The notes under the pieces: model-generated
Told to the model about the DNA's origin: nothing
Seen by the model: the letters and a program-made list of their open reading frames with translations, nothing else
The model's database searches: none
Assembly (NCBI GenBank): GCA_045594525.1
Contig: JAZNYR010000132.1
Coordinates: forward strand, 1-31,327
Source of the DNA: Clostridia bacterium
Lineage (GTDB): Bacteria > Bacillota > Clostridia > HGM11514
Direction: 5' to 3'
Length of the DNA stretch: 31,327 nt
Program-made: the position numbers and the translations under genes
In this document: positions 9,370 through 27,013 of the stretch, piece after piece
How the letters are laid out: each line of letters opens with the position of its first letter
How positions within the stretch are numbered: position 1 is the stretch's first letter

Positions 9370-9398
9370 TTGATAAAATTCGGAAAATATGATATGAT
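9370..9398 (+). promoter_or_regulatory. Sigma-A promoter of candidate ncRNA 1
   Basis: TTGATA-N17-TATGAT with extended -10 (TGaTATGAT); the predicted start (~9404-9405) coincides with the first base of the closing stem. Confidence 0.75.
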
Positions 9399-9403
9399 AA
9401 ATA

Positions 9404-9611
9404 TGCTAAACATAACTTAATATCATTTTGGGTAGGAATATTTTATGGGAATAATATATTCTTTCTTTTTCATACTATCTCTTAGACTTTTGCAAAAAAT
9501 GCAAATCTCCTTAGAGGTAGTATGGTTTCATTCCTACTCTTATTTAAGTTATGTTTAGCAACAGACGAGGTTTGCGTTTTTTATGCGTTGGCTTCGGCTG
9601 GCGCATTTTTT
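9404..9611 (+). ncRNA. Candidate structured ncRNA 1 (rod-shaped, homologous to 26848-27013)
   Basis: 17-bp perfect closing stem (9404-9420 / 9544-9560), 10-bp stem (9430-9439 / 9530-9539), 15-bp stem (9471-9485 / 9510-9524), terminator 9583-9611 with cUUCGg loop; G-U pairs work only on the + strand. Confidence 0.75.
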
Positions 9612-9634
9612 ATTGAGAAAAGAAGGAATGATTT

Positions 9635-10027
9635 ATGGTAAAATGTGTTTTAATAGGCGACGATATGACTTGTTTGGATACGGATGCAACGATTCGGATT
9701 GAGCGCCACATAGAAAACTTGATCAATCAGCACCAATCCATTGCATTTTATTACTCGCCAACCGATTTTTTTGGCATTTTTTGTAAATTGACCGTTGAAA
9801 GTACGATAAGACTTTATCATAATAAAACCATTTTAAAGTTTGAAGGAAAAATCACATCAAAAATAATAGAAGAAGCCAATTTTTGTATTACCTGTATTCC
9901 TCGGGAAACATTCTGTCCGGATATTGTGAATCAAATAGACAAAAGAAAGGCACAAGGATTGTTGGAAGAATTTGATACCATTCGTTCCTATGTGGAACCG
10001 GATTGGGAAAAGGTATTTCTTTTATAG
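9635..10027 (+). CDS. Hypothetical protein, possibly a divergent SLOG (YpsA/DUF1273-like) fold
   Basis: RBS AAGGA; N-terminal KCVLIGD resembles the xCxFxGH start of clostridial SLOG proteins, followed by ENLINQ..FYY and IIEEANFCIT. Weak similarity judged by eye only. Confidence 0.6.
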   Translation: MVKCVLIGDDMTCLDTDATIRIERHIENLINQHQSIAFYYSPTDFFGIFCKLTVESTIRLYHNKTILKFEGKITSKIIEEANFCITCIPRETFCPDIVNQIDKRKAQGLLEEFDTIRSYVEPDWEKVFLL

Positions 10028-10058
10028 AACATCATATTTTACAATTTTTTACTTACAA

Positions 10059-10097
10059 GAGGAAGTAGCGATTTTTTTGCTACACCCTCTTTTTTTT
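10059..10097 (+). terminator. Intrinsic terminator after the 130-aa gene
   Basis: Imperfect stem gagg..gtagc / gctac..cctc followed by a T run. Confidence 0.6.
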
Positions 10098-10117
10098 AAA
10101 ATTTTTTCCTATATTGG

Positions 10118-10146
10118 TTGATGTATTGGAAAATTTATGGTATAAT
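10118..10146 (+). promoter_or_regulatory. Sigma-A promoter of the secA operon
   Basis: TTGATG-N17-TATAAT with extended -10 (TGgTATAAT). Confidence 0.75.
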
Positions 10147-10221
10147 AAGATGATAGATATTTTATCTTCTCTTCCTGCGGAGAATTTTCAGAAATTAGCA
10201 GGAGAAGGGAAAGGAAATCAC

Positions 10222-12969
10222 ATGTTTAAAGCATTAGTTGAAAAGGTAATCGGCACCTATTCAGAGCGTGAAATCAAGCGGATTATCGGTACAGTAGATA
10301 AAATTGAAAGCTTAGAAGAAGAATACAAAGGGTTAACCGATGAAGAATTAAAAGCAAAAACCCCTTATTTAAAAGATCGGCTTGCAAAGGGAGAAACCTT
10401 AGATGACATTCTCCCCGAAGCCTTTGCAACAGTACGGGAGGCAGCTTGGCGTGTGCTGGGAATGCGTCATTTCCGCGTACAGCTCATGGGCGGTATTATC
10501 CTGCATCAGGGAAGAATTGCTGAAATGAAAACAGGGGAAGGAAAAACTCTGGTGGCAACCCTGCCCTCCTACTTAAATGCCTTAACGGGCAAGGGGGTAC
10601 ACATTGTTACAGTCAACGACTATCTTGCCAAGCGTGACAGCGAGTGGATGGGAAAAATCCATGAATTTTTAGGGTTAAAGGTAGGTCTGATTGTAAACGG
10701 GCTGGACAAAAACGAACGGAAAGAAGCTTACGAGGCGGACATTACTTACGGCACCAACAACGAATTTGGGTTTGACTATTTGAGAGATAACACCGTCATT
10801 TACAAAGAACGAATGGTGCAAAGAGGTCATTACTTTGCCATTGTGGACGAAGTGGACTCTATTTTGGTGGACGAAGCAAGAACTCCTTTGATTATTTCGG
10901 GTCAAGGAGATAAATCCAGCGAATTATATACTCAGGTGGATGCCTTTGTCCGGGGCTTACAAAAAACCAAGGTGATTGAGCTGAATAACAAGGAATCCCA
11001 GGACGACATGGAAGGGGATTATCTGGTGGATGAAAAAGCAAAAACCGCCACCCTAACCCCTGCGGGCACCAAAAAGGCAGAACGGTATTTCGGTGTGGAA
11101 AATTTAACCGACCCGGAAAACATTTCTCTCCTTCATCACATCAATGTTGCCATCCGTGCTTACGGCATTATGCAACGGGACATTGACTATGTGGTAAAAG
11201 ACGGGCAAGTGCTGATTGTGGATGAATTTACAGGCCGTATCATGAACGGCAGACGGTACAGCGAGGGTCTGCACCAGGCAATCGAAGCCAAGGAGCATGT
11301 GAAAATTGAAAACGAAAATAAGACTTTAGCAACCATCACCTTCCAGAATTATTTCAGACTATATGAAAAACTGTCAGGTATGACAGGGACTGCCCAAACA
11401 GAAGAAACGGAATTTCAGCAGATTTATAAGCTTGATGTTGTGGCAATTCCCACCAACAAGCCTGTGGCAAGAAAAGACCTGCCCGACCTGATTTATAAAA
11501 ACGAAGCAGGAAAATTCCGAGCAGTCATTCAGGATATTATTAAAACTCATCAAAAGGGTCAGCCTGTGCTGGTGGGTACCATTTCCATTGAAAAATCAGA
11601 GCTTTTGAGCCGTGAATTAAAGCGGGCGGGTGTGAAGCACGAAGTGTTAAACGCAAAGCACCATGAACGAGAAGCCCAGATAGTTGCCCAGGCGGGAAAA
11701 CCCGGTGCGGTTACCATTGCTACCAACATGGCAGGGAGAGGTACCGACATTGTGCTGGGCGGCAACGCAGAATTTATGGCAAGAAGTGAATTAAAACGGT
11801 TAGGCTTTTCTGAAAGCGCCATTTTGGAGGCAGACGGAAACGGGATTACAACAGACGAAGAAGTACTGGAGGCAAGAAAAACTTTCCATGAGCTGACCGA
11901 AAAATACAAGGAAGAGTTAAAACCGGAACGGGATGCGGTATTAGAGGCAGGCGGTCTTTATATCATCGGCACCGAACGGCACGAAAGCCGACGGATTGAC
12001 AATCAATTAAGAGGTCGTTCCGGCCGTCAGGGTGACCCGGGTCAGTCAAGATTTTATCTTTCTCTGGATGACGACCTGATGCGTCTGTTTGGCTCGGATA
12101 AAATGAAAACCATGGTCGAGGCCATGGGCTTAAAAGACGATGAGGCAATTGAAAACGGACTTCTGACCAAGCAGATTGAAGCCGCTCAACGAAGAGTGGA
12201 AGGCAGAAACTTTGACATTCGTAAAAATGTGTTAAACTACGACGATGTGTTAAATGTACAGCGTCAGAAGGTTTATTCGCAACGGCAACAGGTGTTGGAT
12301 TGTGCGGACATTCATGATAATGTAAAACGGATGATGCGGGATGTAATTACTGATTTTGTTCAGATGCACACCGCACAAAGCAACTACCCTGAAGAATGGG
12401 ATTTAAAAGCAATCATTGAGCATTTTGAATCTCTGTTCTTACAACCCGGTCAACTGACCTTTACCAGACAGGAAATTCAGGAGCTGACCAAAGATAGTCT
12501 CATTAACACTCTGGTAGAAGAAGCCTATGCGGCTTATGACAAAAAGGAACAGGAATCAGGAAGCGAAGTTCTCCGTGAATTTGAACGGGTGATTTTACTC
12601 CAGATTGTGGATAAAAACTGGATTGAGCATATTGAAAACATGGAGCAATTAAAGCAAGGCATTTTCCTTCGCGCCTTTGCCCAGCACGATCCTCTTGTGG
12701 AATACAAAATGGAAGGATCGGATATGTTTGACGAAATGAATGACAATATCCGCCGTGAAATGGTGGAAATGGCATTCCGTGTCCGCATTAAGCAAAATAT
12801 TCAAAGAGAGCAGGTTGCCTCCCCTGTGGAAAGCTCTCACGGTACAGGGGGAGAAAAGGTCAGCCGCACGGTTGTAAAGGCGCCCAAGGTAGGAAGAAAT
12901 GATCCCTGTCCCTGCGGTTCGGGCAAAAAGTATAAAAAATGCTGCGGAGCATCCGCAAGTGATGAATAA
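10222..12969 (+). CDS. secA: Preprotein translocase ATPase SecA
   Basis: [10 protein letters not shown] Walker [46 protein letters not shown]-terminal SEC-C motif [18 protein letters not shown]; start moved to ATG 10222 (AAGGA upstream). Confidence 0.98.
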
Positions 12970-13001
12970 AGAAAGCGAATGAAGTAAAAGGAGTTGATAA
13001 T

Positions 13002-14115
13002 ATGTTAGAGTTCGACGAATCCCGCTTGACCTTGGCGGGTATGGAACAAGATATCAATGATTTGAGGGATTCACTTTGACGTTGCAGGCTTAAAAAAGCA
13101 GATTGCTGCATTGGAAGAACAGACCGTTCAACCCGGATTTTGGGATGATATGGAAAATTCCTCAAAAATTCTGCAAAAAACCAAGGGGTTAAAAGACCGT
13201 GTTGCCGCTTTTGAAGAATTGGACAACACCTGGCAGGATTTGACCGTTTTGGTGGAAATGGCAGATGAAGAGGAAGATTTATCCGTTTTAGATGAGGTAA
13301 AAAGCGGTGTTTCTTCTTTGATCGAACGGTTGGAACAGATGAAACTGGATACCCTTCTTTCCGGCCCCTATGACAAGAACAATGCCATTGTAACCCTTCA
13401 TGCAGGGGCAGGCGGAACGGAAGCTCAGGACTGGGCGGAAATGCTGTTCCGTATGTATGTCCGCTGGGCAGAACGCCGCGGATTTACCACAGAAACTCTA
13501 GATTTCCTTGCAGGAGATGAAGCAGGAATCAAGAGTGTTACCTTTATGATTTCAGGCTTAAATGCTTATGGCTATTCAAAAGCAGAAAAAGGGGTACACC
13601 GTCTGGTGCGTATCTCTCCTTTTGATGCTTCAGGACGGCGACACACCTCTTTTGCCTCCTTGGAAGTCATGCCCGAGCTTGATGACGATGTGAAAATTGA
13701 CATCAATCAAGACGATTTAAAAGTAGATACTTACCGTTCCAGCGGTGCGGGAGGGCAGCACATTAACAAAACCGACTCTGCCATCCGCATCACCCACATT
13801 CCCACAGGAATTGTGGTGGCTTGTCAGAACGAACGGTCACAGCACAAAAACCGTGATATTGCAATGAAAATGCTGATGGCAAAGCTGTTGGAATTAAAGG
13901 AACAGGAAAACAAGGAAAAAATCGAGGACTTGAAGGGCGAACAAAAGGAAATTGCCTGGGGCAGTCAGATTCGCTCCTATGTGTTCCATCCCTACAACCT
14001 GGTCAAGGACCACCGTACAGGCTTTGAAATGGGCAACATCGGCGCGGTTATGGACGGGGATTTGGACGGTTTTGTCAACGCTTATCTGAAGCAAAGTGTA
14101 AATAAGGGAGAATAA
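13002..14115 (+). CDS. prfB: Peptide chain release factor 2 (programmed +1 frameshift; join 13002-13076, 13078-14115)
   Basis: 25-codon leader MLEFDESRLTLAGMEQDINDLRDSL ends in CTT-TGA-C; the +1 frame contains the SPF recognition motif and GGQ. Confidence 0.97.
13065..13080 (+). other. RF2 programmed +1 ribosomal frameshift site
   Basis: AGGGAT-TCA-CTT-TGA-C: internal Shine-Dalgarno-like element 3 nt before the shifty CTT TGA. Confidence 0.93.
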
Positions 14116-14118
14116 ACC

Positions 14119-15189
14119 ATGTTTGATAAATTAGCAGGTCTGGAAACAAAGTTTCTGGATTTAAGTGATAAAATCAATGACCCGGCAGTGATTGCCGACC
14201 AAAGCCAGTGGCAAAAATATATGCGTGAACACGCAGAGCTCAGTCCCATTGTAGAGGCCTATCGAAATTATCGTCAGGCAAAAGAAGAGGCAGAAGAGGC
14301 GGAAGAAATTCTTCGGGAGGAATCGGACGGGGAATTAAAGCAGATGGCACAGATGCAGTTGGAGGAAGCAAAAGCGACCATTGAAACACTGTCAGAAGAA
14401 CTGAAAATTCTGCTCCTTCCCAAGGACCCCAACGACAACAAGAATGTTATTATTGAAATCCGCGGCGGTGCGGGCGGGGATGAGGCGGCCCTCTTTGCGG
14501 CAGAGCTGTTTCGGATGTATGCCCTGTATGCAGAAAGCAAACGGTGGAAAAGTGAAGTCCTTTCTTCCAGCCCCACAGACATTGGGGGATACAAAGAAGT
14601 TTCCTTCAGTATTGAGGGGGCGGGTGCCTACAGCAAACTGAAATTTGAAAGCGGTGTTCACCGTGTACAAAGAATCCCTGCCACCGAATCAGGCGGACGG
14701 ATTCACACCTCTACCGTAACGGTAGCGGTACTGCCTGAAGTGGAAGAAGTGGAAGTAGAAATTAACCCTAACGACCTGCGGATTGATGTATTCCGTGCGG
14801 GAGGTCCCGGGGGACAGTGTGTTAACACCACCGACTCGGCAGTACGGATTACCCACCTTCCCACAGGAATCGTGGTTTCCTGTCAGGATGAAAAATCACA
14901 ACACAAAAATAAAGATAAGGCAATGAAAATTCTGCGTTCCCGTGTTTATGAGGAAGAGCAATCCAGACAGCACGCGGAAATTGCGGCAGAACGAAAAAGT
15001 CAAGTGGGAACAGGGGATCGAAGTGAACGAATCAGAACCTACAACTTCCCCCAAGGTCGTGTAACCGACCACAGAATCGGCTTGACTCTGCATAAATTAG
15101 AGGCCGTTTTAGGCGGTACTCTGGACGAAATTATTGACGCTCTGATTACAGAGGACCAGAGCAGAAAACTGGCAGCATCCGAAGAATAA
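14119..15189 (+). CDS. prfA: Peptide chain release factor 1
   Basis: [27 protein letters not shown] (PxT motif), [22 protein letters not shown]. Confidence 0.98.
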
Positions 15190-15213
15190 CAAACAGAAAG
15201 AAGATGGAGCAGT

Positions 15214-16257
15214 ATGCAAATCATTCGGGTAACAAATGAGTTTGACAAGCTGGAACCTGCAGCTCAAATCATCCGTCAGGGCGGATTGGTGGCATTTCCT
15301 ACCGAAACGGTGTACGGTCTTGGTGCCAATGCTTTTTTGGGAGAAGCCGTTGCAAACATATTTAAGGCCAAGGGCAGACCTTCGGATAATCCTTTGATTG
15401 TGCACATTTCAGACCTTTCTCAATTAGAGGATATTGTAAGCCATATTCCGGAAAAAGCAAAATTATTAATGGACCGGTTCTGGCCGGGTCCCCTCACTTT
15501 GATTTTGCCCAAAAAGGAAAACATCCCCGATGAAGTCACGGCGGGACTTTCTACCGTGGGAGTGCGGTTTCCCAAGCACCCTGTGGCACAGGCGTTTATT
15601 TCCATGGCAGGTGTTCCCATTGCGGCACCCTCTGCCAATACCTCAGGAAAACCAAGCCCTACCACTGCACAACATGTAATCGACGATTTGTTCGGCAAAA
15701 TAGATGCGGTGATTGACGGTGGAGCTGCCAATGTGGGCTTAGAATCTACCATTGTGGATGTAAGCGGGGAAATTCCCGTTCTTCTTCGTCCGGGGGGCAT
15801 TACCTATGAACAGCTTTGTGAAGTATTAGGAGAGGTTGCCTTAGGGCAAAGTGTAACCGAGCAGTTATCGGCAAATGCAACTGCCATTGCACCGGGAATG
15901 AAATACCCTCATTATTCCCCCAATGCCCAAGTCATTGTGTTAAAAGGAACGGATGAGGCGCTAATCCGTTATATCAATCAGCAAATCAGAAATCAGCACA
16001 GTCTGGGAAAAAGGGTGGGTGCTATGGTTTATACCCAGATTTTACCCCATATTCTCCAGGCAGATGTGCTGTTATCCTTAGGAGATATTCACCACCGTTC
16101 TTCCGCAGCGGCACATTTATTTTCCTACTTGCGTACCTTTGATGAACAGGGAGTAGAGGTTGTGTACGCCCAGGATTGCGGCGAAACAGGCATCGGCCTT
16201 GCCATTTCCAATCGTTTGAACAAAGCGGCAGGATACGAAATTGTAGAGGTAAACTAA
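15214..16257 (+). CDS. sua5: L-threonylcarbamoyladenylate synthase (Sua5/YwlC type, YrdC + SUA5 domains)
   Basis: VAFPTETVYGLGANA, KGRPSDNPLIVH, AAPSANTSGKPSPT, APGMKYPHYSP. Confidence 0.95.
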   Translation: MQIIRVTNEFDKLEPAAQIIRQGGLVAFPTETVYGLGANAFLGEAVANIFKAKGRPSDNPLIVHISDLSQLEDIVSHIPEKAKLLMDRFWPGPLTLILPKKENIPDEVTAGLSTVGVRFPKHPVAQAFISMAGVPIAAPSANTSGKPSPTTAQHVIDDLFGKIDAVIDGGAANVGLESTIVDVSGEIPVLLRPGGITYEQLCEVLGEVALGQSVTEQLSANATAIAPGMKYPHYSPNAQVIVLKGTDEALIRYINQQIRNQHSLGKRVGAMVYTQILPHILQADVLLSLGDIHHRSSAAAHLFSYLRTFDEQGVEVVYAQDCGETGIGLAISNRLNKAAGYEIVEVN

Positions 16258-16661
16258 TGAATGTATTGTTTGTTTGTACCGGAAACACCTGCAGAAGTCC
16301 CATGGCGCAGGCGATTTATGAGCATATTACAGGAAACAAAGCCAAATCGGGCGGTTTAGGGGTATCGTCCCCTCAGCCTGTCAGCGAGTACGCTCTTGCG
16401 GCGTTAGAAAACATGGGCATTAACGGCTTTTCTCATCTTTCTTATCAGATTACTCCCAAAGATGTAGAGGAGGCAGATGTAATTTATGTAATGACCAAAA
16501 TGCACAAACAAATTTTGGTTACCGTCTGCCCCGAATATGCAGATAAGATTCGTCTTTTGGGCGGGGAGCGGGACATCGCAGACCCTTACGGCGGGTCGTT
16601 ACAGCAGTATTTGTCTTGCTGTGAAGAAATCGAAAGCTGCATTCGGAGAGAGTTATGTTAA
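16257..16661 (+). CDS. ywlE: Low-molecular-weight protein phosphatase, YwlE-type arginine phosphatase
   Basis: P-loop CTGNTCRS (Thr variant characteristic of arginine phosphatases), DIADPYGG; ATG overlaps the sua5 stop; same order as B. subtilis ywlC...ywlE. Confidence 0.8.
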   Translation: MNVLFVCTGNTCRSPMAQAIYEHITGNKAKSGGLGVSSPQPVSEYALAALENMGINGFSHLSYQITPKDVEEADVIYVMTKMHKQILVTVCPEYADKIRLLGGERDIADPYGGSLQQYLSCCEEIESCIRRELC

Positions 16662-17107
16662 TTTTTGAAGCAACGAAAGAACATTTACAAACACTTCATG
16701 AAATTGAGCAGGTTTGTTTTTCCCATCCCTGGTCAAAAGATTCCCTGTTGTCAGAGCTTACTTCTCAAAACACCGTTAGTCTGGCGGTAAAAATTGAGGA
16801 AGAAATAGCGGGTTTTTGCTTTTTGTCTGTCATTGCAGGGGAAGGAACGGTGTTGCAAGTGGCAGTTTTGCCTGCGCACAGAAGAAAAGGATTGGGAAAA
16901 CAGCTGACCGCTTCTGCCCTACAACAGGCAGAAGAAAGAGGGGCAGAGGTTGTTTTTTTAGAAGTCCGAGTCAGCAATGCTGCTGCCAAAGGTCTGTACG
17001 AATCTCTTGGATTTAAAGAAATTGCCGTCAGAAAAGGATATTATCGAGACGGAGAAACAGCAATTATTATGCAATGGAGGAAACAAAATGAAAATTCTGG
17101 CAATTGA
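16655..17107 (+). CDS. rimI: Ribosomal protein N-acetyltransferase RimI (GNAT)
   Basis: HPWS, QVAVLPAHRRKGLG, FLEVRVSNAAAKGLYESLGF, RKGYY; directly upstream of tsaD. Confidence 0.88.
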   Translation: MLIFEATKEHLQTLHEIEQVCFSHPWSKDSLLSELTSQNTVSLAVKIEEEIAGFCFLSVIAGEGTVLQVAVLPAHRRKGLGKQLTASALQQAEERGAEVVFLEVRVSNAAAKGLYESLGFKEIAVRKGYYRDGETAIIMQWRKQNENSGN

Positions 17108-18083
17108 GTCTTCCTGCGACGAAACTGCCGCAGCGATAGTGGAGGACGGAAGAAAGGTACTGAGTGATATTATCGCATCTTCCGCAGAATTGCATAAATT
17201 ATACGGCGGCGTGGTTCCCGAAATTGCATCCAGAAAACATCTGGAATGTATTTCTCAAGTGGTAAATGAGGCTTTGTCTCAGGCAAAGATTACTTTTCAT
17301 GAAATTGATGCCGTTGCCGTCACCTACGGCCCCGGCTTAATCGGCGCCTTGTTAGTGGGCGTTTCTTATGCGAAGGCTTTGGCCTTTGCCTTACAAAAAC
17401 CGTTGGTGGCGGTGCATCACATTAAAGCACATTTGGCCGCCAATTATATTGAACACCCTGATCTGACCCCTCCCTATGTGGGATTGGTAGCATCGGGAGG
17501 GCACAGCCATATTGTGTACGCCTCTGATTGGGTGGATTTTGAAGTACTGGGAAGAACCCGTGATGATGCGGCAGGGGAAGCCTTTGACAAGGTGGCAAGA
17601 ACCATCGGCCTTGGGTATCCGGGAGGTCCTTTATTGGAGCAACTGGCACGAGAAGGAAATCCTCACGCGTACGAGTTTCCCAGAGTGCAGTTTGATAATT
17701 TTGATTTTAGCTTCAGCGGTGTGAAAACCGCTGTCATTAATACCATGCACAAAGCAGAGCAAAAAGGAGAAACCATTAACACAGCTGATGTGGCGGCATC
17801 CGTTCAGTGTGCGGCGGCAGATGTTTTGGTTGCTCATACGCTTGCGGCGGCAAAAGAAAAAGGCGTCAAAACCGTTGTAATGGCAGGGGGCGTTTCTGCC
17901 AACGGTTATTTACGCCAACGGTTTACAGACGCATGTAAGGAACAAGGTTTTACCTTCCTTTGTCCTCGACCCAGATATTGTACGGATAACGGGGTGATGG
18001 TTGGTGCAGCCAGCTTTTTTATGGCACAAAAAGGAGACTTTTGCTCCCTGGACGAAAATGCATACGCCACATTGCCATTCTAA
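17088..18083 (+). CDS. tsaD: tRNA N6-adenosine threonylcarbamoyltransferase TsaD
   Basis: LAIESSCDET, YGGVVPEIASRKH, GPGLIGAL, HHIKAH, SGGH, TRDDAAGEAFDK, FSFSG, CTDNG; start moved to ATG 17088 (GGAGG upstream). Confidence 0.97.
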   Translation: MKILAIESSCDETAAAIVEDGRKVLSDIIASSAELHKLYGGVVPEIASRKHLECISQVVNEALSQAKITFHEIDAVAVTYGPGLIGALLVGVSYAKALAFALQKPLVAVHHIKAHLAANYIEHPDLTPPYVGLVASGGHSHIVYASDWVDFEVLGRTRDDAAGEAFDKVARTIGLGYPGGPLLEQLAREGNPHAYEFPRVQFDNFDFSFSGVKTAVINTMHKAEQKGETINTADVAASVQCAAADVLVAHTLAAAKEKGVKTVVMAGGVSANGYLRQRFTDACKEQGFTFLCPRPRYCTDNGVMVGAASFFMAQKGDFCSLDENAYATLPF

Positions 18084-19036: not shown

Positions 19037-20004
19037 CAGATTTATGCAATCCCTCATTTTTCCATGGAGTTTGTGAATGGGAAGAAAGCGAAAACGGGGT
19101 ATCTATCACCCGTTTGCCCAAAAAAGTACTGGATTGGTATCAACACCAAAACGAAAATTGGTATAAGTATGCCTGCTGTTATTCAGGGATTCGTTTGGAA
19201 ACAGAAACCAACGCCACATCCCTGACCTTCTCTTTGGAATATGAAAACGGAACCCCTGCGTTTGCAAGCTTTGGTTTGATGATTGACGGGCAGGTTCAGC
19301 CTGTGATTTCTCTCACCGCAGAGGAGTTAAGCAATCCTGTTACCATTCCTCTGGACGGACAAACGCATCGAGTGGTTGTTTATTTTCCCCACCTCATTTC
19401 TTTTGTCATAAAAAGTGCCGTGGCAGAGGGTGATGCCAAGCCCATAGAACCAAAGAAACAACGATATTATGCCTTTGGTGATTCCATTACGCAAGGTTCC
19501 ACGGGAGAAAACCCGTGCTTTACCTATCCGGCTCAGCTTGCCAGATGCTTTGATTTAGAATTTTGGAATTTCGGTGTTTGCGGACTTCGTTTTCGGGAAG
19601 GAACTCTTGACGGAATCGAAGCTCTTCCTACTCCTGATTTTGTTACCGTGGCTTTGGGTACCAATGATTTTACGGACGGCAGAACGGAAAATATGTCTTC
19701 CTTTTTGAAAAGCTGTGCAGGCTATTTGAAAAAAATTGATGCCATGTATCACAATGTTCCCACCTATATTCTTCTTCCTATCTGGAGAACAGACGAAATG
19801 CAATCGGTAAAACGAGGCAACTTACAAAACATTCGGGACAACATTACCCGTATTGTCGAGTTTTATCCTAATATGACAGTGATTGACTGTCAGGATATGA
19901 TTCCTCACGACGAGAAATTTTATGATGACGGACTTCATCCAAACAGCGAAGGATTTCTCCATTACGGAAAAAATTTATGCGAAGCTTTGAAGGAAAGGCT
20001 GTGA
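19033..20004 (+). CDS. SGNH/GDSL-type hydrolase with N-terminal beta domain
   Basis: Blocks FGDSITQG, ALGTND and DGLHPN. Confidence 0.88.
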   Translation: MTDLCNPSFFHGVCEWEESENGVSITRLPKKVLDWYQHQNENWYKYACCYSGIRLETETNATSLTFSLEYENGTPAFASFGLMIDGQVQPVISLTAEELSNPVTIPLDGQTHRVVVYFPHLISFVIKSAVAEGDAKPIEPKKQRYYAFGDSITQGSTGENPCFTYPAQLARCFDLEFWNFGVCGLRFREGTLDGIEALPTPDFVTVALGTNDFTDGRTENMSSFLKSCAGYLKKIDAMYHNVPTYILLPIWRTDEMQSVKRGNLQNIRDNITRIVEFYPNMTVIDCQDMIPHDEKFYDDGLHPNSEGFLHYGKNLCEALKERL

Positions 20005-20011
20005 AATCGGT

Positions 20012-20575
20012 ATGGAAACCAATGCACTTGGGATTACCCACCGTTATATGAAGCAGGTCATCGGTCTCGGTGACCATGTCATAGACGCCACTGCGGGAAA
20101 CGGTCATGACACTCTGTTTATGGCCCAGCTTGTGGGAGAGGAGGGGCACATTACCGCCTTTGATATTCAACCTCAGGCACTGGAAAACACCAAAAAAAGA
20201 CTGAAAAATGCAGGAGTGGATGCCCGTGTGACCCTGATCCAGGACGGTCATCAGAATATGAAACAGTATGTCAAAGGGCCTGTAAAAGCCGTCACCTTTA
20301 ATTTCGGATACCTCCCCGGAGGAGACCATAACATCTGCACCCATGCAGATACCAGCATTGCCGCCATTTTAGCAGCCTTGGAGCTAATTTCGGAGGACGG
20401 TATGGTATTGCTGGGGATTTATTACGGCGGTGACAGCGGATTTGAGGAAAAAGATGCCTTAATGGCGTTTTTAAAAACCTTGAACCCTCATGAATACAGC
20501 GTGCTGTGCCATGATTTTATCAATTATCCCAACTGTCCGCCCTTGGCGGTCAGAATTATTAAGGAGAGGCGTTAA
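20012..20575 (+). CDS. mnmM: Class I SAM-dependent methyltransferase, YtqB/MnmM family (tRNA mnm5s2U34 methyltransferase)
   Basis: IDATAGNGHDT, FDIQ, FNFGYLPGGD, YYGGDSGFEEK, FINYPNCPP. Confidence 0.8.
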   Translation: METNALGITHRYMKQVIGLGDHVIDATAGNGHDTLFMAQLVGEEGHITAFDIQPQALENTKKRLKNAGVDARVTLIQDGHQNMKQYVKGPVKAVTFNFGYLPGGDHNICTHADTSIAAILAALELISEDGMVLLGIYYGGDSGFEEKDALMAFLKTLNPHEYSVLCHDFINYPNCPPLAVRIIKERR

Positions 20576-21846
20576 TGGAAACAGAACAAAAACGGTTAAC
20601 CGCCATTCTGGTGGGACTAAACACCGGAGGACGGGATTTGTTAGAAGAGTCCACCACACAATCCATGGAAGAACTGGAAGCTCTGGCTGATGCGGCAGAA
20701 GTGGACACGGTTGCAGTTGTGATGCAAAACCGCCAGACGGTAGAGGCAGCAACCTATATTGGCCCCGGAAAATTACAGGAGGTTTGTGAACTTTGCCAAA
20801 GTTTACATCCTGATTTTTTGCTGTTTGACGACGAACTGTCCGGTTCTCAAGTTCGAAATATTGAAGAGGCTTCAGGGGTAACGGTCATTGACCGAAGCCG
20901 TCTGATTTTAGATATTTTTGCCGGCCGTGCCACCTCCAGAGAGGGAAAATGTCAGGTCGAGCTGGCACAATTACAATATTTACTGCCCAGACTGTCCGGT
21001 GTGGGTGCTTCCATGTCCCGTCAGGGGGCAGGAATCGGCACAAGAGGTCCGGGAGAAACCCGACTGGAAACAGACCGTCGGCACATCCGCACCAGAATTG
21101 CCAAATTAAAAGAAGATTTAAAAGAGATTGAACAGCATCGCCGCACAAGGCGCAGTAAGCGGTTAAAAGAAGGCATTCCCCAAGTGGCGCTGGTGGGCTA
21201 TACCAATGCAGGAAAATCCACCTTATTAAACTGTCTGACAGATGCGGGTACCTTTGCAAAGGATCAACTGTTTGCAACCCTGGACCCTCTGGTAAAGCGA
21301 ATGGAGCTGGCAGAGGATTTTCCCATTGTGGTAACTGACACGGTAGGGTTTGTCCGAAAGCTTCCTCATCATCTGGTAGAAGCGTTCCGCTCCACCTTGG
21401 AGGAAAGCATTTATGCAGATGTAGTGCTCCATGTGGTAGATGCCTCCAATCCCGAATATTCCCTGCAAATGGAGGTAGCACAAAAGCTGCTGGCCTCTTT
21501 GGGCGTAAAAGAAAATGTAATTATTACAGTATTTAATCAAATTGATAAGGCTCAAGGGGAGCTTCCTCACATGGCAGACAGTGTGTGCATCTCTGCAAAA
21601 ACAGGGGAAGGTATCGAGGAGCTTTTGAATTTGCTTCGGAAACGGCTGGTTCCGGTGCGCAGAAGTGTAACGGTTTGTATCCCTTATTCGGAAGGAAAAA
21701 TTGCCGCCATGCTCCATGAAAAAACAAAGGTGGAGCAGGAGGAATTTACGGAAAACGGTCAGGTAATGAAGGTGGTGGCAGACCGAGAACTGATGTCCCT
21801 CCTCGCCCCTTATCTGACAGAGGAGGAAACGGATGAAGCCTTATAA
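20575..21846 (+). CDS. hflX: GTPase HflX
   Basis: IDRSRLILDIFA, QVELAQLQYLLPRL, GTRGPGETRLE, GYTNAGKST, LFATLDP, DTVGF, AFRSTLEE. Confidence 0.97.
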   Translation: METEQKRLTAILVGLNTGGRDLLEESTTQSMEELEALADAAEVDTVAVVMQNRQTVEAATYIGPGKLQEVCELCQSLHPDFLLFDDELSGSQVRNIEEASGVTVIDRSRLILDIFAGRATSREGKCQVELAQLQYLLPRLSGVGASMSRQGAGIGTRGPGETRLETDRRHIRTRIAKLKEDLKEIEQHRRTRRSKRLKEGIPQVALVGYTNAGKSTLLNCLTDAGTFAKDQLFATLDPLVKRMELAEDFPIVVTDTVGFVRKLPHHLVEAFRSTLEESIYADVVLHVVDASNPEYSLQMEVAQKLLASLGVKENVIITVFNQIDKAQGELPHMADSVCISAKTGEGIEELLNLLRKRLVPVRRSVTVCIPYSEGKIAAMLHEKTKVEQEEFTENGQVMKVVADRELMSLLAPYLTEEETDEAL

Positions 21847-22459
21847 AACCTTTGGACAAATTGCCGTGGCAGAGCTGGTAGAAAAGCGTTCCCGATTCAT
21901 TGCCCAAGCATTTCGGATTCAGACCGAGGAAGAGGCCATTTCTATTTTAAATGACATACGAAGCAAATACTGGGATGCCCGTCACCATGTCTATGCTTAC
22001 ACCGTACGGGAAAACAACATTACCCGCTTTTCGGATGACGGAGAACCTGCTAAAACCGCAGGACCGCCCGTGTTGGATGTGATTACCCGTGAGGATGTCA
22101 CGGACTGTATGATTGTGGTCACCCGTTATTTTGGCGGAACCTTGTTGGGTGCAGGAGGGTTGGTAAGAGCCTACGGAAAAAGTGCCAAAATGGCATTGGA
22201 TGAAGCGACGGTAATTACTATGACGCCCTGCGTTCAGTATTGTGCCACCGTTGGCTACGGAGATTGGGGAAAGTTTCAGAATGTACTGAAAAATTTGGGA
22301 GCATCTTCTCCCGAAGGAGAGTTTGGAGCAGAGATTACCGCAAGCTTTTGGATTCCACTGACCGAGGAAGAAAGAGCCTTGGCAGAACTGACCGAGCAGT
22401 TTAACGCTCTCATTGTTCCCCAAAAAATACAGGAAGATTTTTTTTGCTTGGAAAACTAA
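21833..22459 (+). CDS. YigZ/IMPACT family protein
   Basis: EKRSRFIA, ARHHVYAY, SDDGEP, VVTRYFGGTLLGAGGLVRAY. Confidence 0.92.
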   Translation: MKPYKTFGQIAVAELVEKRSRFIAQAFRIQTEEEAISILNDIRSKYWDARHHVYAYTVRENNITRFSDDGEPAKTAGPPVLDVITREDVTDCMIVVTRYFGGTLLGAGGLVRAYGKSAKMALDEATVITMTPCVQYCATVGYGDWGKFQNVLKNLGASSPEGEFGAEITASFWIPLTEEERALAELTEQFNALIVPQKIQEDFFCLEN

Positions 22460-22565
22460 AAGAGGATATAAAAATCTCCAGACCGCAAAGTGATCAATAA
22501 AAAAAAGATGATCAAAAATTTTGCTACCCCTTTTAGAAAACTGTTTTGAAAGAAGGAAGGATATT

Positions 22566-22712
22566 ATGGAACCCAAAAAATTGTTTCCCACCGCCCCTTT
22601 GGGGTTTGATAAAAAGGCTGTTATCGCCTATATTGAACAGCTAAATCTTGCTTATGAGGAAGAGCTGAAAAAGAAAGATGAACTGATTCAACAATTACAA
22701 GAAAATAAATAA
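22566..22712 (+). CDS. 48-aa DivIVA/GpsB N-terminal-domain-like protein
   Basis: RBS AAGGAAGG; LFPTAPLGFDKKAVIAYIEQL resembles the DivIVA motif F..xxxGY/F..xxVxxxL, followed by a short coiled coil. Confidence 0.6.
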   Translation: MEPKKLFPTAPLGFDKKAVIAYIEQLNLAYEEELKKKDELIQQLQENK

Positions 22713-22750
22713 AAGACCCGCAAGGAACAATTCCTTGCGGGTATATTTTT
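22711..22750. terminator. Bidirectional intrinsic terminator
   Basis: 12-bp stem acccgcaaggaa-caa-ttccttgcgggt with A-rich and T-rich flanks between convergent genes. Confidence 0.85.
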
Positions 22751-24980
22751 ACCTTTCATCTGCCGGTAACTCTATAGGTGCTTGAGGCACAATGGGTTGT
22801 TCCGGCACAGGGACAGGATTCTCGGGGGTTTGATTACCCGGTGTCTCTTCCGGTGCAGGTGATTGGGGAGAGGGTGTTTCCTCCGGAAGGGTAACAGGTG
22901 TTTCAGAAGGTTCAGGTGAATCAGAAGGTTCTTCCTCTTCGCCTTCCTCTCCTTCTTCTCCCTCTTCATCTTCATCCTCGTCTTCGTCTTCCTCGTCCTT
23001 TTCTTTCTCTTCTTTTGCTTCGCTATTGATAGCCAAGTTATAATTTACATTAGAAGGCCATTCAAAATCACGGGGTGCCAAACCGAGTTCGCTATGCACC
23101 CGACGCATAACAGTTCCCCAGATAGAAGTACTGATGCCGTCAAATGTGTATTGATACAAATCCTTCGGCTGGTCGAATCCGCACCATACTGCTCCTGCAT
23201 AGTAAGGAGAAGTACCACAGAACCAAAGGTCATGAGCATTATCTGTTGTTCCCGTTTTTCCTAAAGAGGAAATTCCGTTTCCAAGCCATGCTGCAGTACC
23301 GGTACCGCTTGTGACAACAGAACGCAGACAGCTCATCATCATAGCATTGTTTTCGGGACTAAACACATAGGTTTCTTCCACCGTTTTTTCCAGCAACACA
23401 TTTCCGTCCGCATCCAACACCTTCGTATAGGTATGAGGAGTCAAATGCGTGCCGTTATTTGCAAAAGTTGCATAAGCTGCTGTCATTTCTTTTACGGTTA
23501 CACCATCGGTCAAACCGCCCAATGCCAGACCGGCAAGGTGTTTGTCTGTATGAACGAAACCGTCCTCCGCTTTTCTTGAATCAACTAAAGTAGAGAAATG
23601 GAACCGTTCTGTCATGTAATCAAAGGAAGTTTCTACTCCCAACATCTGCAATGTTCTTACTGCAACAATGTTAATAGAACGGGCAACGGCATTACGAACG
23701 CTGACTGCCCCCGAGAAAGAAAAGTCATAGTTATTGGGTTTCCAGCTTCCCACGGTAATGGGTTTATCAATAATAATGGTTCCCGGACCGATGAGTCCTT
23801 CTTCCATAGCAGGGCCGTAAACCGCAATAGGCTTAATGGTGGACCCTGGTTGACGGGTGGTCTGGGTGGCACGGTTTAAGGTACGATTGCTTTCCTTGTT
23901 TCCGCGACCGCCGATCAGCGCTTTGATTTCGCCGGTATAAGGATCCATAATAACCATGGAGGATTCCATCTGTTCTTTCCCCGAGGGAGTACCGAAATTG
24001 GAATCATCCGCATATTCTTCCTCCAGAATCGTTTGAATTCTGGCATCCATGGTGGTATAAATCTTCAAACCGCCGTTATAAAGCAGCTTTGCTGCATAGT
24101 TGGGAGCATACCCCTTTTCTTCCTGCAAATCCTTCAGCACTTCGTCAATCACCGCATCGACAAAATAGGACTGAATCTGATTTTCATCGTTGTCCCCTCC
24201 GCCGAAGGTGATTTCATAAGCCAAAGCTTCTTCGTATTCTTGTTCCGTGATATAATCCAGCTCCAGCATTTTTGCCAGAACTACTTTCTGCTTGGTCAGG
24301 TTTGCTTCCGGGTTTAAGATAGGGTCATACTGGGTGGGATACTGGGTAATTCCCGCCAATGATGCAGCTTCCGCCAGATTCAGCTCGCTGACATCCTTTC
24401 CGAAATAAGTATATGCTGCGGTTTTCACACCGTTACAGCCCTGTCCCAGATAAATGGTATTCAAATACAATTCCAGAATGCTTTCTTTATCCATTTGCTG
24501 TTCTAACTGAATGGCACGGATAATTTCACGCAACTTACGGCTGACTACCGCTTCATCATCCCCTGTCAGGTTCTTAATCAACTGCTGGGTGATGGTACTT
24601 CCGCCGTAGGAATTATCGCTTTTCATCACATAATTCAATGCTGCACCGATGAACCGCTTTAAGTCAAAACCCTTATGGCTCCAAAAGCGTTCATCTTCAA
24701 TAGCAACAATGGCATCTTTCAGATAAGGGGAAATATCCTCCATGTCTGCCCAGATACGGTTTTCCGTTCCTGACAGTTGATGATATTCCACATCGTTACC
24801 GTTTTCATCTGTATAATACAGAAAAGATGTAAAATTCAAGTTGATATCGTCTGTATTAAACTCTGTAAATACATCATTGGTAGTCAGCATAATTGCCCCT
24901 ACCGTACATCCTGCAAGGATAGACAGAATCAACACAAAGATCAGCAAGAATTTTAAAAATATTTTGACTGACCGTTTCAT
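22749..24980 (-). CDS. Class A penicillin-binding protein (PBP1A family) with acidic, Pro-rich C-terminal tail
   Basis: N-terminal TM; transglycosylase motifs EDERF, GGSTITQQL, RKLREI; transpeptidase STIK, SIN, KTGT; start moved to ATG 24980 (GGGGG upstream). Confidence 0.95.
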   Translation of the reverse strand: MKRSVKIFLKFLLIFVLILSILAGCTVGAIMLTTNDVFTEFNTDDINLNFTSFLYYTDENGNDVEYHQLSGTENRIWADMEDISPYLKDAIVAIEDERFWSHKGFDLKRFIGAALNYVMKSDNSYGGSTITQQLIKNLTGDDEAVVSRKLREIIRAIQLEQQMDKESILELYLNTIYLGQGCNGVKTAAYTYFGKDVSELNLAEAASLAGITQYPTQYDPILNPEANLTKQKVVLAKMLELDYITEQEYEEALAYEITFGGGDNDENQIQSYFVDAVIDEVLKDLQEEKGYAPNYAAKLLYNGGLKIYTTMDARIQTILEEEYADDSNFGTPSGKEQMESSMVIMDPYTGEIKALIGGRGNKESNRTLNRATQTTRQPGSTIKPIAVYGPAMEEGLIGPGTIIIDKPITVGSWKPNNYDFSFSGAVSVRNAVARSINIVAVRTLQMLGVETSFDYMTERFHFSTLVDSRKAEDGFVHTDKHLAGLALGGLTDGVTVKEMTAAYATFANNGTHLTPHTYTKVLDADGNVLLEKTVEETYVFSPENNAMMMSCLRSVVTSGTGTAAWLGNGISSLGKTGTTDNAHDLWFCGTSPYYAGAVWCGFDQPKDLYQYTFDGISTSIWGTVMRRVHSELGLAPRDFEWPSNVNYNLAINSEAKEEKEKDEEDEDEDEDEEGEEGEEGEEEEPSDSPEPSETPVTLPEETPSPQSPAPEETPGNQTPENPVPVPEQPIVPQAPIELPADER

Positions 24981-25091
24981 AGTAAACCCCCAATTCAATC
25001 TGTATCTGTTATTATATCTTGTCTTACCTTATATTATAGCACAAATTCCGGATTTTTTGTTTAAAATTGTGTTACATTTTTCTTAATATTT

Positions 25092-25120
25092 GTATAAAAA
25101 CGGGGAAAAAATGAAAACTA
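25092..25120 (+). promoter_or_regulatory. Possible forespore sigma (F/G-like) promoter
   Basis: GTATA-N17-AAAACTA resembles GHATR-N17/18-CATWHTA; lies upstream of a bofC-like gene. Confidence 0.4.
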
Positions 25121-25142
25121 AAGAAAGAAAGGTGTGATCGTT

Positions 25143-25670
25143 ATGAAAAAACCAACATTTCTTCTCGTTTGTGTCACAGGATTGATGTTGGGATTTGGCA
25201 CAGCAAAATTTCTGACTCCCTCTCCCGCCATACTGCAAAAAGCTGCCGCCACTCCCACACAGATACCCGTTTCTCAAACTTCTGTCGTGACAGAAGATTC
25301 CCGTCTTTTGGTGCGTTACAGTTTTGGCGGATGTGGCCATTTTACCCTAAATGAAGAACCTTTGCCTGCTTCCTGGATAGGAAAGGAAGCCGCATCCCTT
25401 TCCTTGCCCGGTACATTATTTGAAACCTTTGAAGAAAACACTCTTTATCTGGCAAAAATCAGTCAGAAAAAATGTGATTGTCATTTTGTTCTGACCGCAC
25501 AGGGGAACGAGCTGGTGGTCACCTATCAGAATGACCCCTCGAAAGTGCGGGATCGTCACAGTTTTCGTCCCCAGTTATTGTCTGAAACAGAGCTTCAAAA
25601 ACTGCAGGCGGGAATTTATCTGGATTCCGAAGAAGAATTAACCCGCCTGTTAGAGGATTATTGCAGTTGA
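25143..25670 (+). CDS. BofC C-terminal-domain-containing protein
   Basis: N-terminal hydrophobic/signal segment; C-terminal LQKLQAGIYLDSEEELTRLLEDYCS fits the BofC_C pattern; RBS AAGGTG. Confidence 0.7.
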   Translation: MKKPTFLLVCVTGLMLGFGTAKFLTPSPAILQKAAATPTQIPVSQTSVVTEDSRLLVRYSFGGCGHFTLNEEPLPASWIGKEAASLSLPGTLFETFEENTLYLAKISQKKCDCHFVLTAQGNELVVTYQNDPSKVRDRHSFRPQLLSETELQKLQAGIYLDSEEELTRLLEDYCS

Positions 25671-25695
25671 CTTTTTTCCAAAGGCACTATATAAT
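25667..25695 (+). promoter_or_regulatory. Sigma-A promoter of the alpha/beta hydrolase
   Basis: TTGACT-N17-TATAAT; the -35 overlaps the upstream stop codon. Confidence 0.75.
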
Positions 25696-25726
25696 AGGAG
25701 GGAGAAAATGAAAGGAGTTTTGACTT

Positions 25727-26560
25727 ATGATTCATAAAATCATTCCTTTAAGCGAAACCAATCAAGAGGTATATCTGGAAGTGTTCGTAGCAAATAAATT
25801 GGGCGAATTTGTCCGCGATGCTCTCCTGGTCATTCCCGGAGGAGGCTATGAAATGGTTTGCAACCATAATGAAGGAGAACCTATTGCTCACGCCTTTTTG
25901 GCAAGGGGATACAACACTTTTGTTCTTCACTATTCCATTGGAGAGCATGCCGTTTTTCCTCAACCTCTGATTGAAGCTTCCCTGGCGGTCAAACATATCA
26001 AAGACCACGCAGAGGAATACAACATCAACCCCGACCGCGTCTTTGGCTGCGGATTTTCTGCAGGAGGACACCTGTGCGCCTCCTTGGGAACCCTGTGGCA
26101 TTTGCCCGAAATTTATGAAAGGGCAGAAATCCCTTACGGTTCCAACAAATTAGCGGGTATGCTCAACATTTATCCTGTGATTTCCGCTTTGGTTCCCGGA
26201 ACACACATGCCAAGCTTCCATCGTATTTTAGGAACCGAATCCCCCTCACAAGAAGAACTGGCGCGGTATTCTCTGGAGCTTCGGGTAAGCGAAAACACCG
26301 TTCCTGCTTTTGTGGTACATACCATAGTGGACCAAACCGTATCAGTTGCCAATTCCTTGGTTTTTGCCCGGGCTTTAACCGATCACAATATTCCTTGTGA
26401 AGTACATATTTATCCCAAAGGTGCTCACGGTTTTTCTCTCGCCACCGAATGGACTGCCGAAGGATATACAGAGAAAATCAATCCAACCAATGCCAAGTGG
26501 GTTGATCTGGCTAATGACTGGATGAAATCAGTTGATACAGCACCGCACCATTGCAAATAA
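25727..26560 (+). CDS. Alpha/beta hydrolase (esterase/lipase)
   Basis: Oxyanion PGGGY, nucleophile GFSAGG, acid DQTV, His in HGFSL. Confidence 0.9.
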   Translation: MIHKIIPLSETNQEVYLEVFVANKLGEFVRDALLVIPGGGYEMVCNHNEGEPIAHAFLARGYNTFVLHYSIGEHAVFPQPLIEASLAVKHIKDHAEEYNINPDRVFGCGFSAGGHLCASLGTLWHLPEIYERAEIPYGSNKLAGMLNIYPVISALVPGTHMPSFHRILGTESPSQEELARYSLELRVSENTVPAFVVHTIVDQTVSVANSLVFARALTDHNIPCEVHIYPKGAHGFSLATEWTAEGYTEKINPTNAKWVDLANDWMKSVDTAPHHCK

Positions 26561-26774
26561 TGGCAACCGGTACCAAAATGCGAAATTTTAACTGTCTTGT
26601 TTTATGACGAAAGACTATCATACCAAGCCCTGCTCCCAAGCCACCCAGAAAAAAGGCGCACAGGAGCAGGGTTTTTTCGCTGATTCTCCACTCGTATGCC
26701 TCTGCTCTTTGCTTATCCCGTCCGTATAGCAAAAAAACGATTAAGTTCCATAATATAAACACAATTTTTAGCAT
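26511..26774 (-). CDS. DUF1294 family small membrane protein
   Basis: YGRDKQRA...WRISEKTLL..AFFLGGLGA.LGM..FRHKT signature; start moved to ATG 26774 (AAAGGAG upstream). Confidence 0.88.
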   Translation of the reverse strand: MLKIVFILWNLIVFLLYGRDKQRAEAYEWRISEKTLLLCAFFLGGLGAGLGMIVFRHKTRQLKFRILVPVAIICNGAVLYQLISSSH

Positions 26775-26814
26775 CTTCGGGCTCCTTTCAATCCTTTTTT
26801 CAAATACGAAAATA

Positions 26815-26843
26815 TTGACTATTGTAGCAATATGTGATATAAT
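26815..26843 (+). promoter_or_regulatory. Sigma-A promoter of candidate ncRNA 2
   Basis: TTGACT-N17-TATAAT with extended -10 (TGaTATAAT); no credible + strand CDS follows before a terminator. Confidence 0.8.
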
Positions 26844-26847
26844 GTTT

Positions 26848-27013
26848 TTACCACACAAATCAAATAAGGTATATTTCAAGAGAATGTTTTTGTTTTCGCA
26901 AAAAAATGCATTCTCCATTTGTGCATTCCTTGTGATATGCCAAATGATTTGTGTGGTAACAAACAGGAGTAATGCATTTTTTGGTGCATCGACTTTTGTT
27001 GATGCACTTTTTT
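26848..27013 (+). ncRNA. Candidate structured ncRNA 2 (rod-shaped, homologous to 9404-9611)
   Basis: 15-bp perfect closing stem (26848-26862 / 26945-26959), about 17-bp inner stem (26868-26886 / 26924-26941), terminator 26984-27013. Confidence 0.75.

Follow-up and report, generated by a model that had tools for sequence, protein, structure and literature searches.

We analysed a 31,327-nucleotide (nt) stretch of DNA from a Clostridia bacterium (GenBank assembly GCA_045594525.1, contig JAZNYR010000132.1, positions 1 to 31,327 of the forward strand; hereafter the window), in which an earlier reading of the letters, referred to here as the original prediction, had described two homologous, rod-shaped non-coding RNA genes 17 kb apart. 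Both loci, which we call copy 1 and copy 2, are members of a family, absent from Rfam, whose leader RNAs are anchored at a promoter and measure about 150-215 nt. We consider it probable that these RNAs act in cis as transcription attenuators, because they can form a set of competing helices, because these helices co-evolve, and because the family is tightly linked to downstream genes.

The two loci belong to an uncatalogued RNA family

Promoter and terminator scans, together with RNA folding, recovered at both loci the parts that had been described, at the positions given for them: an extended -10 promoter, a rod starting at about +1, shared sequence blocks and an intrinsic terminator. The conserved apical 19-mers, the shared tails and the compensatory changes in the terminator stems were likewise evident on direct reading of the sequence. 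Copy 1 folds with a minimum free energy (MFE) of -73 kcal/mol (z -9.8) and copy 2 with one of -60 kcal/mol (z -6.6), and for neither locus did any of 200 dinucleotide shuffles fold equally well.

BLAST searches with both loci against their own assembly, a pig-gut metagenome-assembled genome (MAG) of 1.4 Mb in 271 contigs that is 81% complete, returned additional tail-terminator copies, all of them preceded by a rod and a consensus promoter. With a covariance model built on the 3' half of nine copies (R1), 12 copies were identified in this genome, so that what had been presented as a pair of paralogues is two of at least 12 copies, in a family that is spread through related gut Clostridia. Against a model made from the genome's copies, copy 1 scored 102 bits (E 1e-18) and copy 2 scored 88 bits (E 1e-15); this model includes both loci, and 10 further copies of the same genome and about 100 copies in relatives match as well.

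The R1 search found about 100 copies in 18 of 61 sampled relatives, with up to 15 per genome and occasional tandem arrays. All six congeners were positive, as were 9 of 11 genomes of the taxonomic family and several other families of the class; at the level of the order, 10 of 12 genomes carried the RNA. Outside the class, 147 genomes sampled from the other classes of the phylum gave no match at E 1e-5. MAGs labelled "Clostridia bacterium" and "Oscillospiraceae bacterium" are the nearest relatives that bear a name, and the sequencing runs that contain the locus are DNA metagenomes of pig gut, bovine gut and manure. Among viral contigs, a strict pattern search gave no hits, while a looser pattern gave two contigs, one of which was confirmed by the model. 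On this predicted viral contig (IMGVR_UViG_3300011008_000947, L127 6461-6582) a full leader 3' half scoring 64 bits lies at the contig's very end.

At gathering scores Rfam 15 matched neither locus, and the hits at E up to 10 did not exceed chance level, in agreement with the original exclusion of 6S RNA, signal recognition particle RNA, transfer-messenger RNA, RNase P and T-box, and full-text literature searches found no description of this RNA family. The family is thus uncatalogued and deserves an Rfam entry.

Conserved motifs frame a hypervariable rod

In about 40 of 41 copies, the last base of a near-consensus sigma-A promoter with an extended -10 element lies 6-8 nt before the first base of the closing helix, P1. 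This helix begins at about the predicted +1, spans 12-24 bp across copies (a perfect 17 bp in copy 1) and opens on semi-conserved, UGCCAAA-like bases. Right after P1, the 5' strand carries a conserved, mostly unpaired and A/U-rich hinge motif, yUnAAUAU, beyond which the inner helices are hypervariable to the point that rod sequences cannot be aligned between copies. Two size classes occur, a long one of about 196-216 nt with an extra 5' hairpin, which includes copy 1, and a short one of about 150-185 nt, which includes copy 2.

Two conserved landmarks recur on this variable scaffold. Block B, at the apex, consists of a UUGGU-like element, an A run, UGCA, three variable bases and CUC; tail C, which follows the rod and a ACAAUCGGAG-like linker, consists of GAG, three variable bases, UGCG and a U run. 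B and C lie a constant 60-70 nt apart, however long the 5' arm is. In the rod state the A run of B often lies in the apical loop, as it does in the MFE fold of copy 1, and C is single-stranded. The terminator that follows usually has a CUUCGG loop.

The original prediction had argued that block B is non-coding from its being read in different frames at the two loci; the argument is a loose one, and its conclusion stands on other grounds, namely that no open reading frame (ORF) is common to the copies and that the AUG of the block is ACG or GCG in many of them. A small protein or type I toxin was rejected on the same evidence, even though copy 1 contains a 37-codon hydrophobic frame behind a sequestered AGGA. 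Two readings of the hinge were also tried and set aside. As a sigma-dependent pause element (-10-like, as used by lambda Q), it is not enriched, being present in 41% of copies compared with 35% of shuffles, and inspection revealed no tandem G-A signature of a K-turn.

Four competing helices co-evolve within each copy

The original prediction saw the apical block and the tail as conserved handles on quickly evolving stems that change by compensation. The covariance model and the covariation described below bear out this picture and the homology of the two loci, but the handles are not independent of one another: the apical block and the tail are mutually complementary, and the terminator in turn has complementarity to the linker and tail. 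This makes the architecture a chain of helices that exclude one another, comprising A:B, a weak helix at the rod apex between B and its 5' partner inside the rod, B:C, an antiterminator (AT) and the terminator (T).

The B:C helix measures 14-16 bp and, in taking up the antiterminator strand, has the pairing expected of an anti-antiterminator. In copy 1 the complementarity extends over 16 nt (9494-9509 with 9567-9582; duplex -16.5 kcal/mol), and in copy 2 positions 26901-26916 pair with 26966-26982 around one bulge (-15.5 kcal/mol). The variable bases of B and C change together between copies, as in UGCAAA/UUUGCG, UGCAUU/AAUGCA, UGUAUU/AAUACG and CGUGUCC/GGACGCG. In AT, which has the pairing expected of an antiterminator, the linker and C pair with the end of the terminator's 5' arm, its loop and the proximal part of its 3' arm. 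For copy 1 this involves 9566-9577 with 9585-9596 plus 9562-9564 with 9598-9600 (-12.5 kcal/mol), and for copy 2 it involves 26962-26978 with 26983-27000 (-15.8 kcal/mol, versus -16.8 kcal/mol for T). AT is the MFE structure in several full-length folds, and almost every tail that is cut short of the distal 3' arm folds into it; the linker triplet varies jointly with both terminator arms (CAA/TTG, CTA/TAG, CAT/ATG, CAG/CTG).

On an alignment of 47 copies to the model, B:C and T together were 91.8% paired, compared with 38-65% when the partner was slid out of register, and 20 of 24 pairs had changed on both sides. A MAFFT alignment made from sequence only, and so fitted to no structure, gave the same picture: P1 was 97% paired (10 of 11 pairs changed on both sides), B:C 92.8% and T 97.4%, compared with 37-54% with the partner slid. 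Overall, 24 of 34 pairs had changed on both sides in this alignment (7 of 14 for B:C alone), a level reached by none of 500 shuffles, so the covariation anticipated for the two loci is significant. The T helix was 97-100% paired with covariation and forms, downstream of the promoter, the GC-rich hairpin with a U run that an intrinsic terminator requires. For AT, whose register differs between subfamilies, fixed-column pairing in the model alignment was 75.7%, compared with 31-60% when slid.

We also compared, independently of any alignment, the energy of each helix formed with a copy's own partner strand and with the partner strands of other copies, using 5000 permutations. Own pairings were stronger for AT (-16.6 versus -12.0 kcal/mol), for B:C (-15.1 versus -10.6 kcal/mol) and for A:B (-8.6 versus -5.8 kcal/mol), and in no case did any permutation reach the observed value. 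Each competing helix thus co-evolves within its own copy. The mean energies were -48.4 kcal/mol for the rod, -15.1 for B:C, -15.6 for AT and -16.0 for T, with a cost of 6.2 kcal/mol for freeing B; AT and T are therefore balanced.

Finally, G-U pairs outnumbered A-C mismatches by 147 to 8 in B:C and T and by 80 to 14 in P1, the latter count being partly biased by the definition of P1 that was used. This excess indicates selection on the RNA of this strand rather than on DNA palindromes. A fold-back geometry, in which P1 would equal the upper rod in length and a U-turn would bring C to B, was considered and discarded, given that P1 varies between 12 and 24 bp while the total length of the 3' arm is constant.

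Leaders precede co-oriented genes and travel as cassettes

Genomic context was tallied for 47 copies with flanking sequence. In about 29 of them a co-oriented start codon with a Shine-Dalgarno-like motif lies no more than ~110 nt past the terminator, and in many the spacing is only 10-16 nt, which leaves no room for another promoter. In 9 of the 47 another copy follows in tandem, each with its own promoter, and in about 6 there is nothing nearby. The description of these loci as free-standing RNA genes is accordingly less likely than that of a cis-acting leader or attenuator, since most copies lie 10-110 nt upstream of a co-oriented gene with a ribosome-binding site (RBS), although copy 2, which lacks a protein cargo, keeps the small RNA (sRNA) reading alive.

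The most extreme tandem arrangement was seen in another genome (L023 840-1650; G008 C6 110.9-111.7 kb), where four leader units, one of them truncated and each with its own consensus promoter, precede a single 62-aa gene; similar pairs occur on contig C59 of the window's own genome and in L025, L033, L034 and L040.

At copy 1, the RBS (GAAGGAA) of an ORF of 130 aa lies ~10 nt past the terminator and its ATG 23 nt past it, so this gene has no room for a promoter of its own. A Pfam search assigned the 130-aa protein to no family. The gene secA lies nearby, and the promoter scan found a promoter-like site of its own for it. In a relative whose SecA is 95% identical (L047), the whole copy 1 unit is missing: the base corresponding to window position 9344 adjoins that corresponding to 10098, and the membrane-protein gene abuts secA. 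A second relative (L048) has the cassette. Because the unit is absent as a whole, the cargo of copy 1 is the 130-aa ORF of its own insertion cassette and not necessarily secA. The insertion is bordered by a short direct repeat, AATTTTT / AAAATTTTTT (window 9335-9345 and 10088-10098), which is present once in the empty site of L047 and may reflect microhomology or a target-site duplication.

Copy 2 is a family member without a protein cargo. No protein gene precedes a second terminator, at which a read-through product would end 70 nt on, and the next gene is 390 nt away. Close copies of this unit, 82-87% identical, are present on contig C17 and in congener G004 (C355), likewise without a protein cargo, and the 70-nt read-through segment is more than 90% conserved among the three, more than the rod. 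It contains no conserved ORF and is non-coding, given the 1-nt indels among the three copies. The segment (27014-27083; also L001 5618-5690, and L132) includes a small hairpin and could represent the read-through product or serve to end transcription of the convergent strand. A 575-bp segment comprising copy 2 and an adjoining repeat (window 26775-27349) is missing at the same site in congener G002. That repeat (window 27115-27331, ~215 bp) lies just downstream of copy 2, recurs at 75-92% identity on many contigs of its own genome and of congeners, and resembles a miniature inverted-repeat transposable element (MITE).

The first ORFs behind the leaders encode BspA-type leucine-rich repeat (LRR) proteins, TerB, VWA, DUF3006, MazE/AbrB-like proteins and Zn ribbons, but most cargos have no Pfam family, and many are lipoproteins or shorter than 80 aa. 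An AbrB/MazE-like cargo of 70-75 aa with a Cys-rich tail end recurs (L007 4859-5254, L022, L024 and L041) and keeps a leader in 4-5 genomes. Its genes are 77-84% identical between genomes, whereas the rods in front of them are 44-49% identical, which suggests that leaders are exchanged or evolve very fast. Leaders and cargos are thus modular, and copies 1 and 2 are both indel cassettes missing in congeners. In three genomes (L003 about 8373-8402, L019 and L036), a conserved mini-ORF of nine codons (MKITKTDYG, MRIQQLEYG, MVIRQLEYG) with a strong GGGGGTGA RBS stands directly after the leader terminator, ~80 nt before a secreted-protein gene.

A model for attenuation in cis

In the cis-acting attenuator that we favour, B would be held by A in the rod apex, leaving C free. 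Free C would then pair with the emerging 5' arm and loop of the terminator, so that AT would form, T would remain incomplete and polymerase would read into the cargo. If B were released, or captured by C, which is transcribed about 25-35 nt before the partner strand of AT, then AT would be blocked, T would fold and transcription would stop, yielding a short RNA of about 165-210 nt. B:C would serve as the anti-antiterminator in this scheme, and together with the U run it also resembles a terminator or pause hairpin itself. Candidates for what shifts B between A and C are a protein, a small molecule or polymerase kinetics, and the candidate contact points are the conserved unpaired nucleotides, namely the hinge yUnAAUAU, the UUGGU before the A run and the ACAA of the linker. 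A protein or ligand touching these motifs is our most economical guess.

Several observations weigh against this model. The cargo genes have no common functional theme. The rod, at a mean of -48 kcal/mol, would form before C is made, which makes it hard to see how B:C would win, and B:C beside an intact, straight rod looks sterically difficult unless P1 opens. On fixed MAFFT columns AT was only 67.8% paired, a moderate value. No co-oriented gene lies near copy 2, C17 or a small number of other copies, and tandem copies with a promoter each would suit sRNA genes as well as leaders. Moreover, no RNA runs are listed among those containing the sequence, so the start site, termination and read-through are predictions.

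In a bolder form of the model, which we put forward only tentatively, the family would be a sensor RNA of a new class, being itself a riboswitch or else recognised by a dedicated RNA-binding regulator. Its mechanism would be an unusual one, a strand-exchange relay of four partners with the apex of the +1-anchored rod reaching back to the terminator platform, and a whole set of horizontally shuffled accessory and surface genes of gut Clostridia would answer to a single global signal. The hypervariable rod would then be a scaffold, with the hinge AAUAU, the apical UUGGU and the linker ACAA forming the recognition site.

Should the switch prove real, a dozen or more accessory genes in each genome of these abundant but uncultured Clostridia of gut and rumen would be under the control of one RNA device. 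Among them are genes for BspA-type LRR surface proteins, lipoproteins, AbrB/MazE-like proteins and numerous tiny proteins of unknown function, and the device travels with its genes as a portable promoter-leader cassette. Its effector, once identified, would point to a signal that governs the expression of surface and accessory genes globally in these organisms, and a long-range anti-antiterminator drawn from a rod apex would be an addition to the known designs of expression platforms. To annotation as it now stands, each copy looks like an orphan sRNA.

Alternative explanations

The strongest competitor, though in our estimation an unlikely one, is that the loci are stand-alone, trans-acting and possibly dual-function sRNAs, with the terminated RNA of about 165-210 nt as the product and the downstream genes incidental. 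Similarly unlikely is the mode of action this would imply, in which the A-rich apex or the single-stranded linker and tail (GGAG) pair with targets or titrate an RNA-binding protein. The strong, constitutive-looking promoters and strong terminators speak for such a family, as do its multiple copies, the tandem arrays with a promoter per unit, and the conservation of copy 2 and its two close relatives despite their lack of protein cargo. In Bacillus, 5' stabiliser structures protect the 5' ends of RNAs, and a P1 at about +1 would shield the 5' end of a stable RNA. Yet the complementarity among linker, tail and terminator co-evolves in each copy, which would be purposeless in a plain sRNA, and in many copies 10-16 nt separate the U run from the RBS of a co-oriented gene. 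Because the rods are hypervariable and account for most of the RNA, no common seed is left other than B and C, and these conserved unpaired blocks pair with each other. A closely spaced co-oriented gene is present in most copies and absent in a minority.

We regard as improbable an unregulated, portable expression module in which the rod would keep the mRNA stable and a leaky terminator would hold read-through at a fixed, low level or insulate the cargo, the alternative helices serving for tuning only. Consistent with such a module, copies 1 and 2 are cassettes that congeners lack, leaders and cargos are shuffled (an AbrB-like cargo 84% identical behind rods 44-49% identical), the cargos share no theme, and the near-equal energies of AT and T would by themselves give partial termination. 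Fixed tuning, however, would need neither the third layer of co-evolving helices (B:C and A:B) nor conserved unpaired motifs, and the constant B-to-C spacing points to a designed switch.

It is very improbable that B:C forms between molecules, the tail of one RNA invading the apex of another to give head-to-tail dimers or multimers, or abundant terminated leaders acting on nascent ones. The frequent exposure of the A run in the apical loop and of C in the rod state would permit this, and the apparent steric strain of an intramolecular helix beside an intact rod would favour it. Covariation is strictly within a copy, though, the conservation of a 60-70 nt distance from B to C points to a constraint in cis, and there is no evidence of multimers.

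A DNA-level repeat, with the closing stem as the terminal inverted repeats of a MITE or as an invertible DNA switch, would fit the multiple copies, the presence/absence polymorphism and the 13-24 bp inverted repeats around about 130 bp, but it is hardly credible and has been largely refuted by the strand-specific and hence RNA-level G-U excess given above, on which the elements do not qualify as MITEs or invertible DNA elements, by arms that differ wholly in sequence between copies while pairing is kept, by a promoter fixed 6-8 nt upstream and a fixed orientation to the downstream gene, and by our seeing no association with a transposase or recombinase.

Comparison with known systems

The family is best described as a variant of the terminator/antiterminator leaders that is a member of none of the systems compared. 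The closest in mechanism are the PyrR-type three-tier attenuators and riboswitch expression platforms, and the closest in genomic habit are the clostridial cyclic di-GMP (c-di-GMP) riboswitches and lambda PR'-tR'. Like the PyrR-controlled pyr attenuators of Bacillus subtilis, the family stacks three exclusive helices that end in an intrinsic terminator, and the decision would be made after initiation at a constitutive promoter. Unlike them, it has no Rfam PyrR match and no visible consensus of the PyrR binding loop, its anti-antiterminator is a long-range helix between the tail and the apex of a +1-anchored rod, for which a fourth partner, A, competes, and its cargos are unrelated to pyrimidine metabolism.

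With terminator riboswitches (S-box/SAM-I and clostridial c-di-GMP-I/II) the family shares a structured, promoter-proximal leader with a competing-helix platform, multiple copies per genome and a position before surface and accessory genes. It differs from them in having no conserved ligand pocket, being mostly hypervariable helix with only short unpaired motifs kept, in having no Rfam hit, and in cargos from which no ligand can be inferred. The genome contains one GGDEF gene and no c-di-GMP-I/II hit, an observation too weak to use, given that the c-di-GMP-I control had no match in any control genome.

The phage lambda PR'-tR' region (194-nt "6S" transcript, Q) and HK022 put resemble the family in combining a strong constitutive promoter with an abundant terminated RNA of about 150-200 nt directly upstream of the cargo, read-through requiring a change of state. 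Here, by contrast, the covarying helices overlap the terminator, which points to an RNA switch and not to polymerase modification, the -10-like pause element of the early transcribed region is not enriched, and no Q-like gene is known. A search for a NusG domain, made with a LoaP-type antiterminator in mind, found none in the 81%-complete MAG and is uninformative.

6S RNA (ssrS) is similarly rod-like and about 160-210 nt long, but the family has no Rfam 6S hit at E up to 10 and no large symmetric central bubble, and is not 6S RNA. It is present in at least 12 copies per genome compared with one or two, ends in and interacts with its own terminator, and is followed by cargo genes. Nor is it a T-box: there is no Rfam hit, and the UGGU before the A run is not kept, being replaced in the window's own genome by UUGCA, UUGUU and UUGAU.

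Coordinates and neighbouring genes

Table 1. Features of copy 1 and copy 2, with positions numbered along the window.
Feature	Position	Strand	Description	Basis
Copy 1 indel cassette	9345..10097	+	promoter, leader, 130-aa ORF and ORF terminator; absent at the syntenic site of relative L047	
Copy 1 promoter	9370..9398	+	-35 TTGATA 9370-9375, 17-nt spacer, TG, extended -10 TATGAT 9393-9398	promoter scan
Copy 1 rod	9404..9560	+	P1 9404-9420:9544-9560; then inner helices, extra 5' hairpin, apex	fold
Copy 1 block B (conserved, apical)	9494..9509	+	A run, then UGCAAAUCUC	complementarity and covariation
Copy 1 linker (ACAGAC) and tail C (GAGG UUUGCG U6)	9561..9582	+	C pairs with B or with the terminator region	
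Copy 1 intrinsic terminator T	9583..9611	+	10-bp stem (9583-9606 region), UUCG loop, U6 run	terminator scan
Copy 1 cargo ORF, 130 aa	9635..10027	+	own terminator 10065-10083	ORF list, Pfam, terminator scan
Copy 2 promoter	26815..26843	+	-35 TTGACT 26815-26820, 17-nt spacer, TG, extended -10 TATAAT 26838-26843	promoter scan, 11/12 matches
Copy 2 rod	26848..26959	+	P1 26848-26862:26945-26959, 15 bp	fold
Copy 2 block B	26901..26916	+	A run, then UGCAUUCUCC	complementarity
Copy 2 linker (CAAACA) and tail C (GGAGUAAUGCA U6)	26960..26982	+		
Copy 2 intrinsic terminator T	26983..27013	+	11-bp stem (26983-27008), UUUU loop, U6 run	terminator scan
Copy 2 read-through segment	27014..27083	+	ends at a second, bidirectional terminator 27059-27073	terminator scan

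Both loci had been described as diverging from a small membrane-protein gene. Such genes are present, one at 9024-9278 with a weak DUF805 match and a DUF1294 gene ending near 26790, but this arrangement is not a feature of the family. Further upstream of copy 1, window positions 7129-8649 encode a 506-aa protein with BspA-type LRR_5 repeats and a C-terminal domain resembling the N-terminal domain of copper amine oxidase, a typical surface protein of gut Clostridia.

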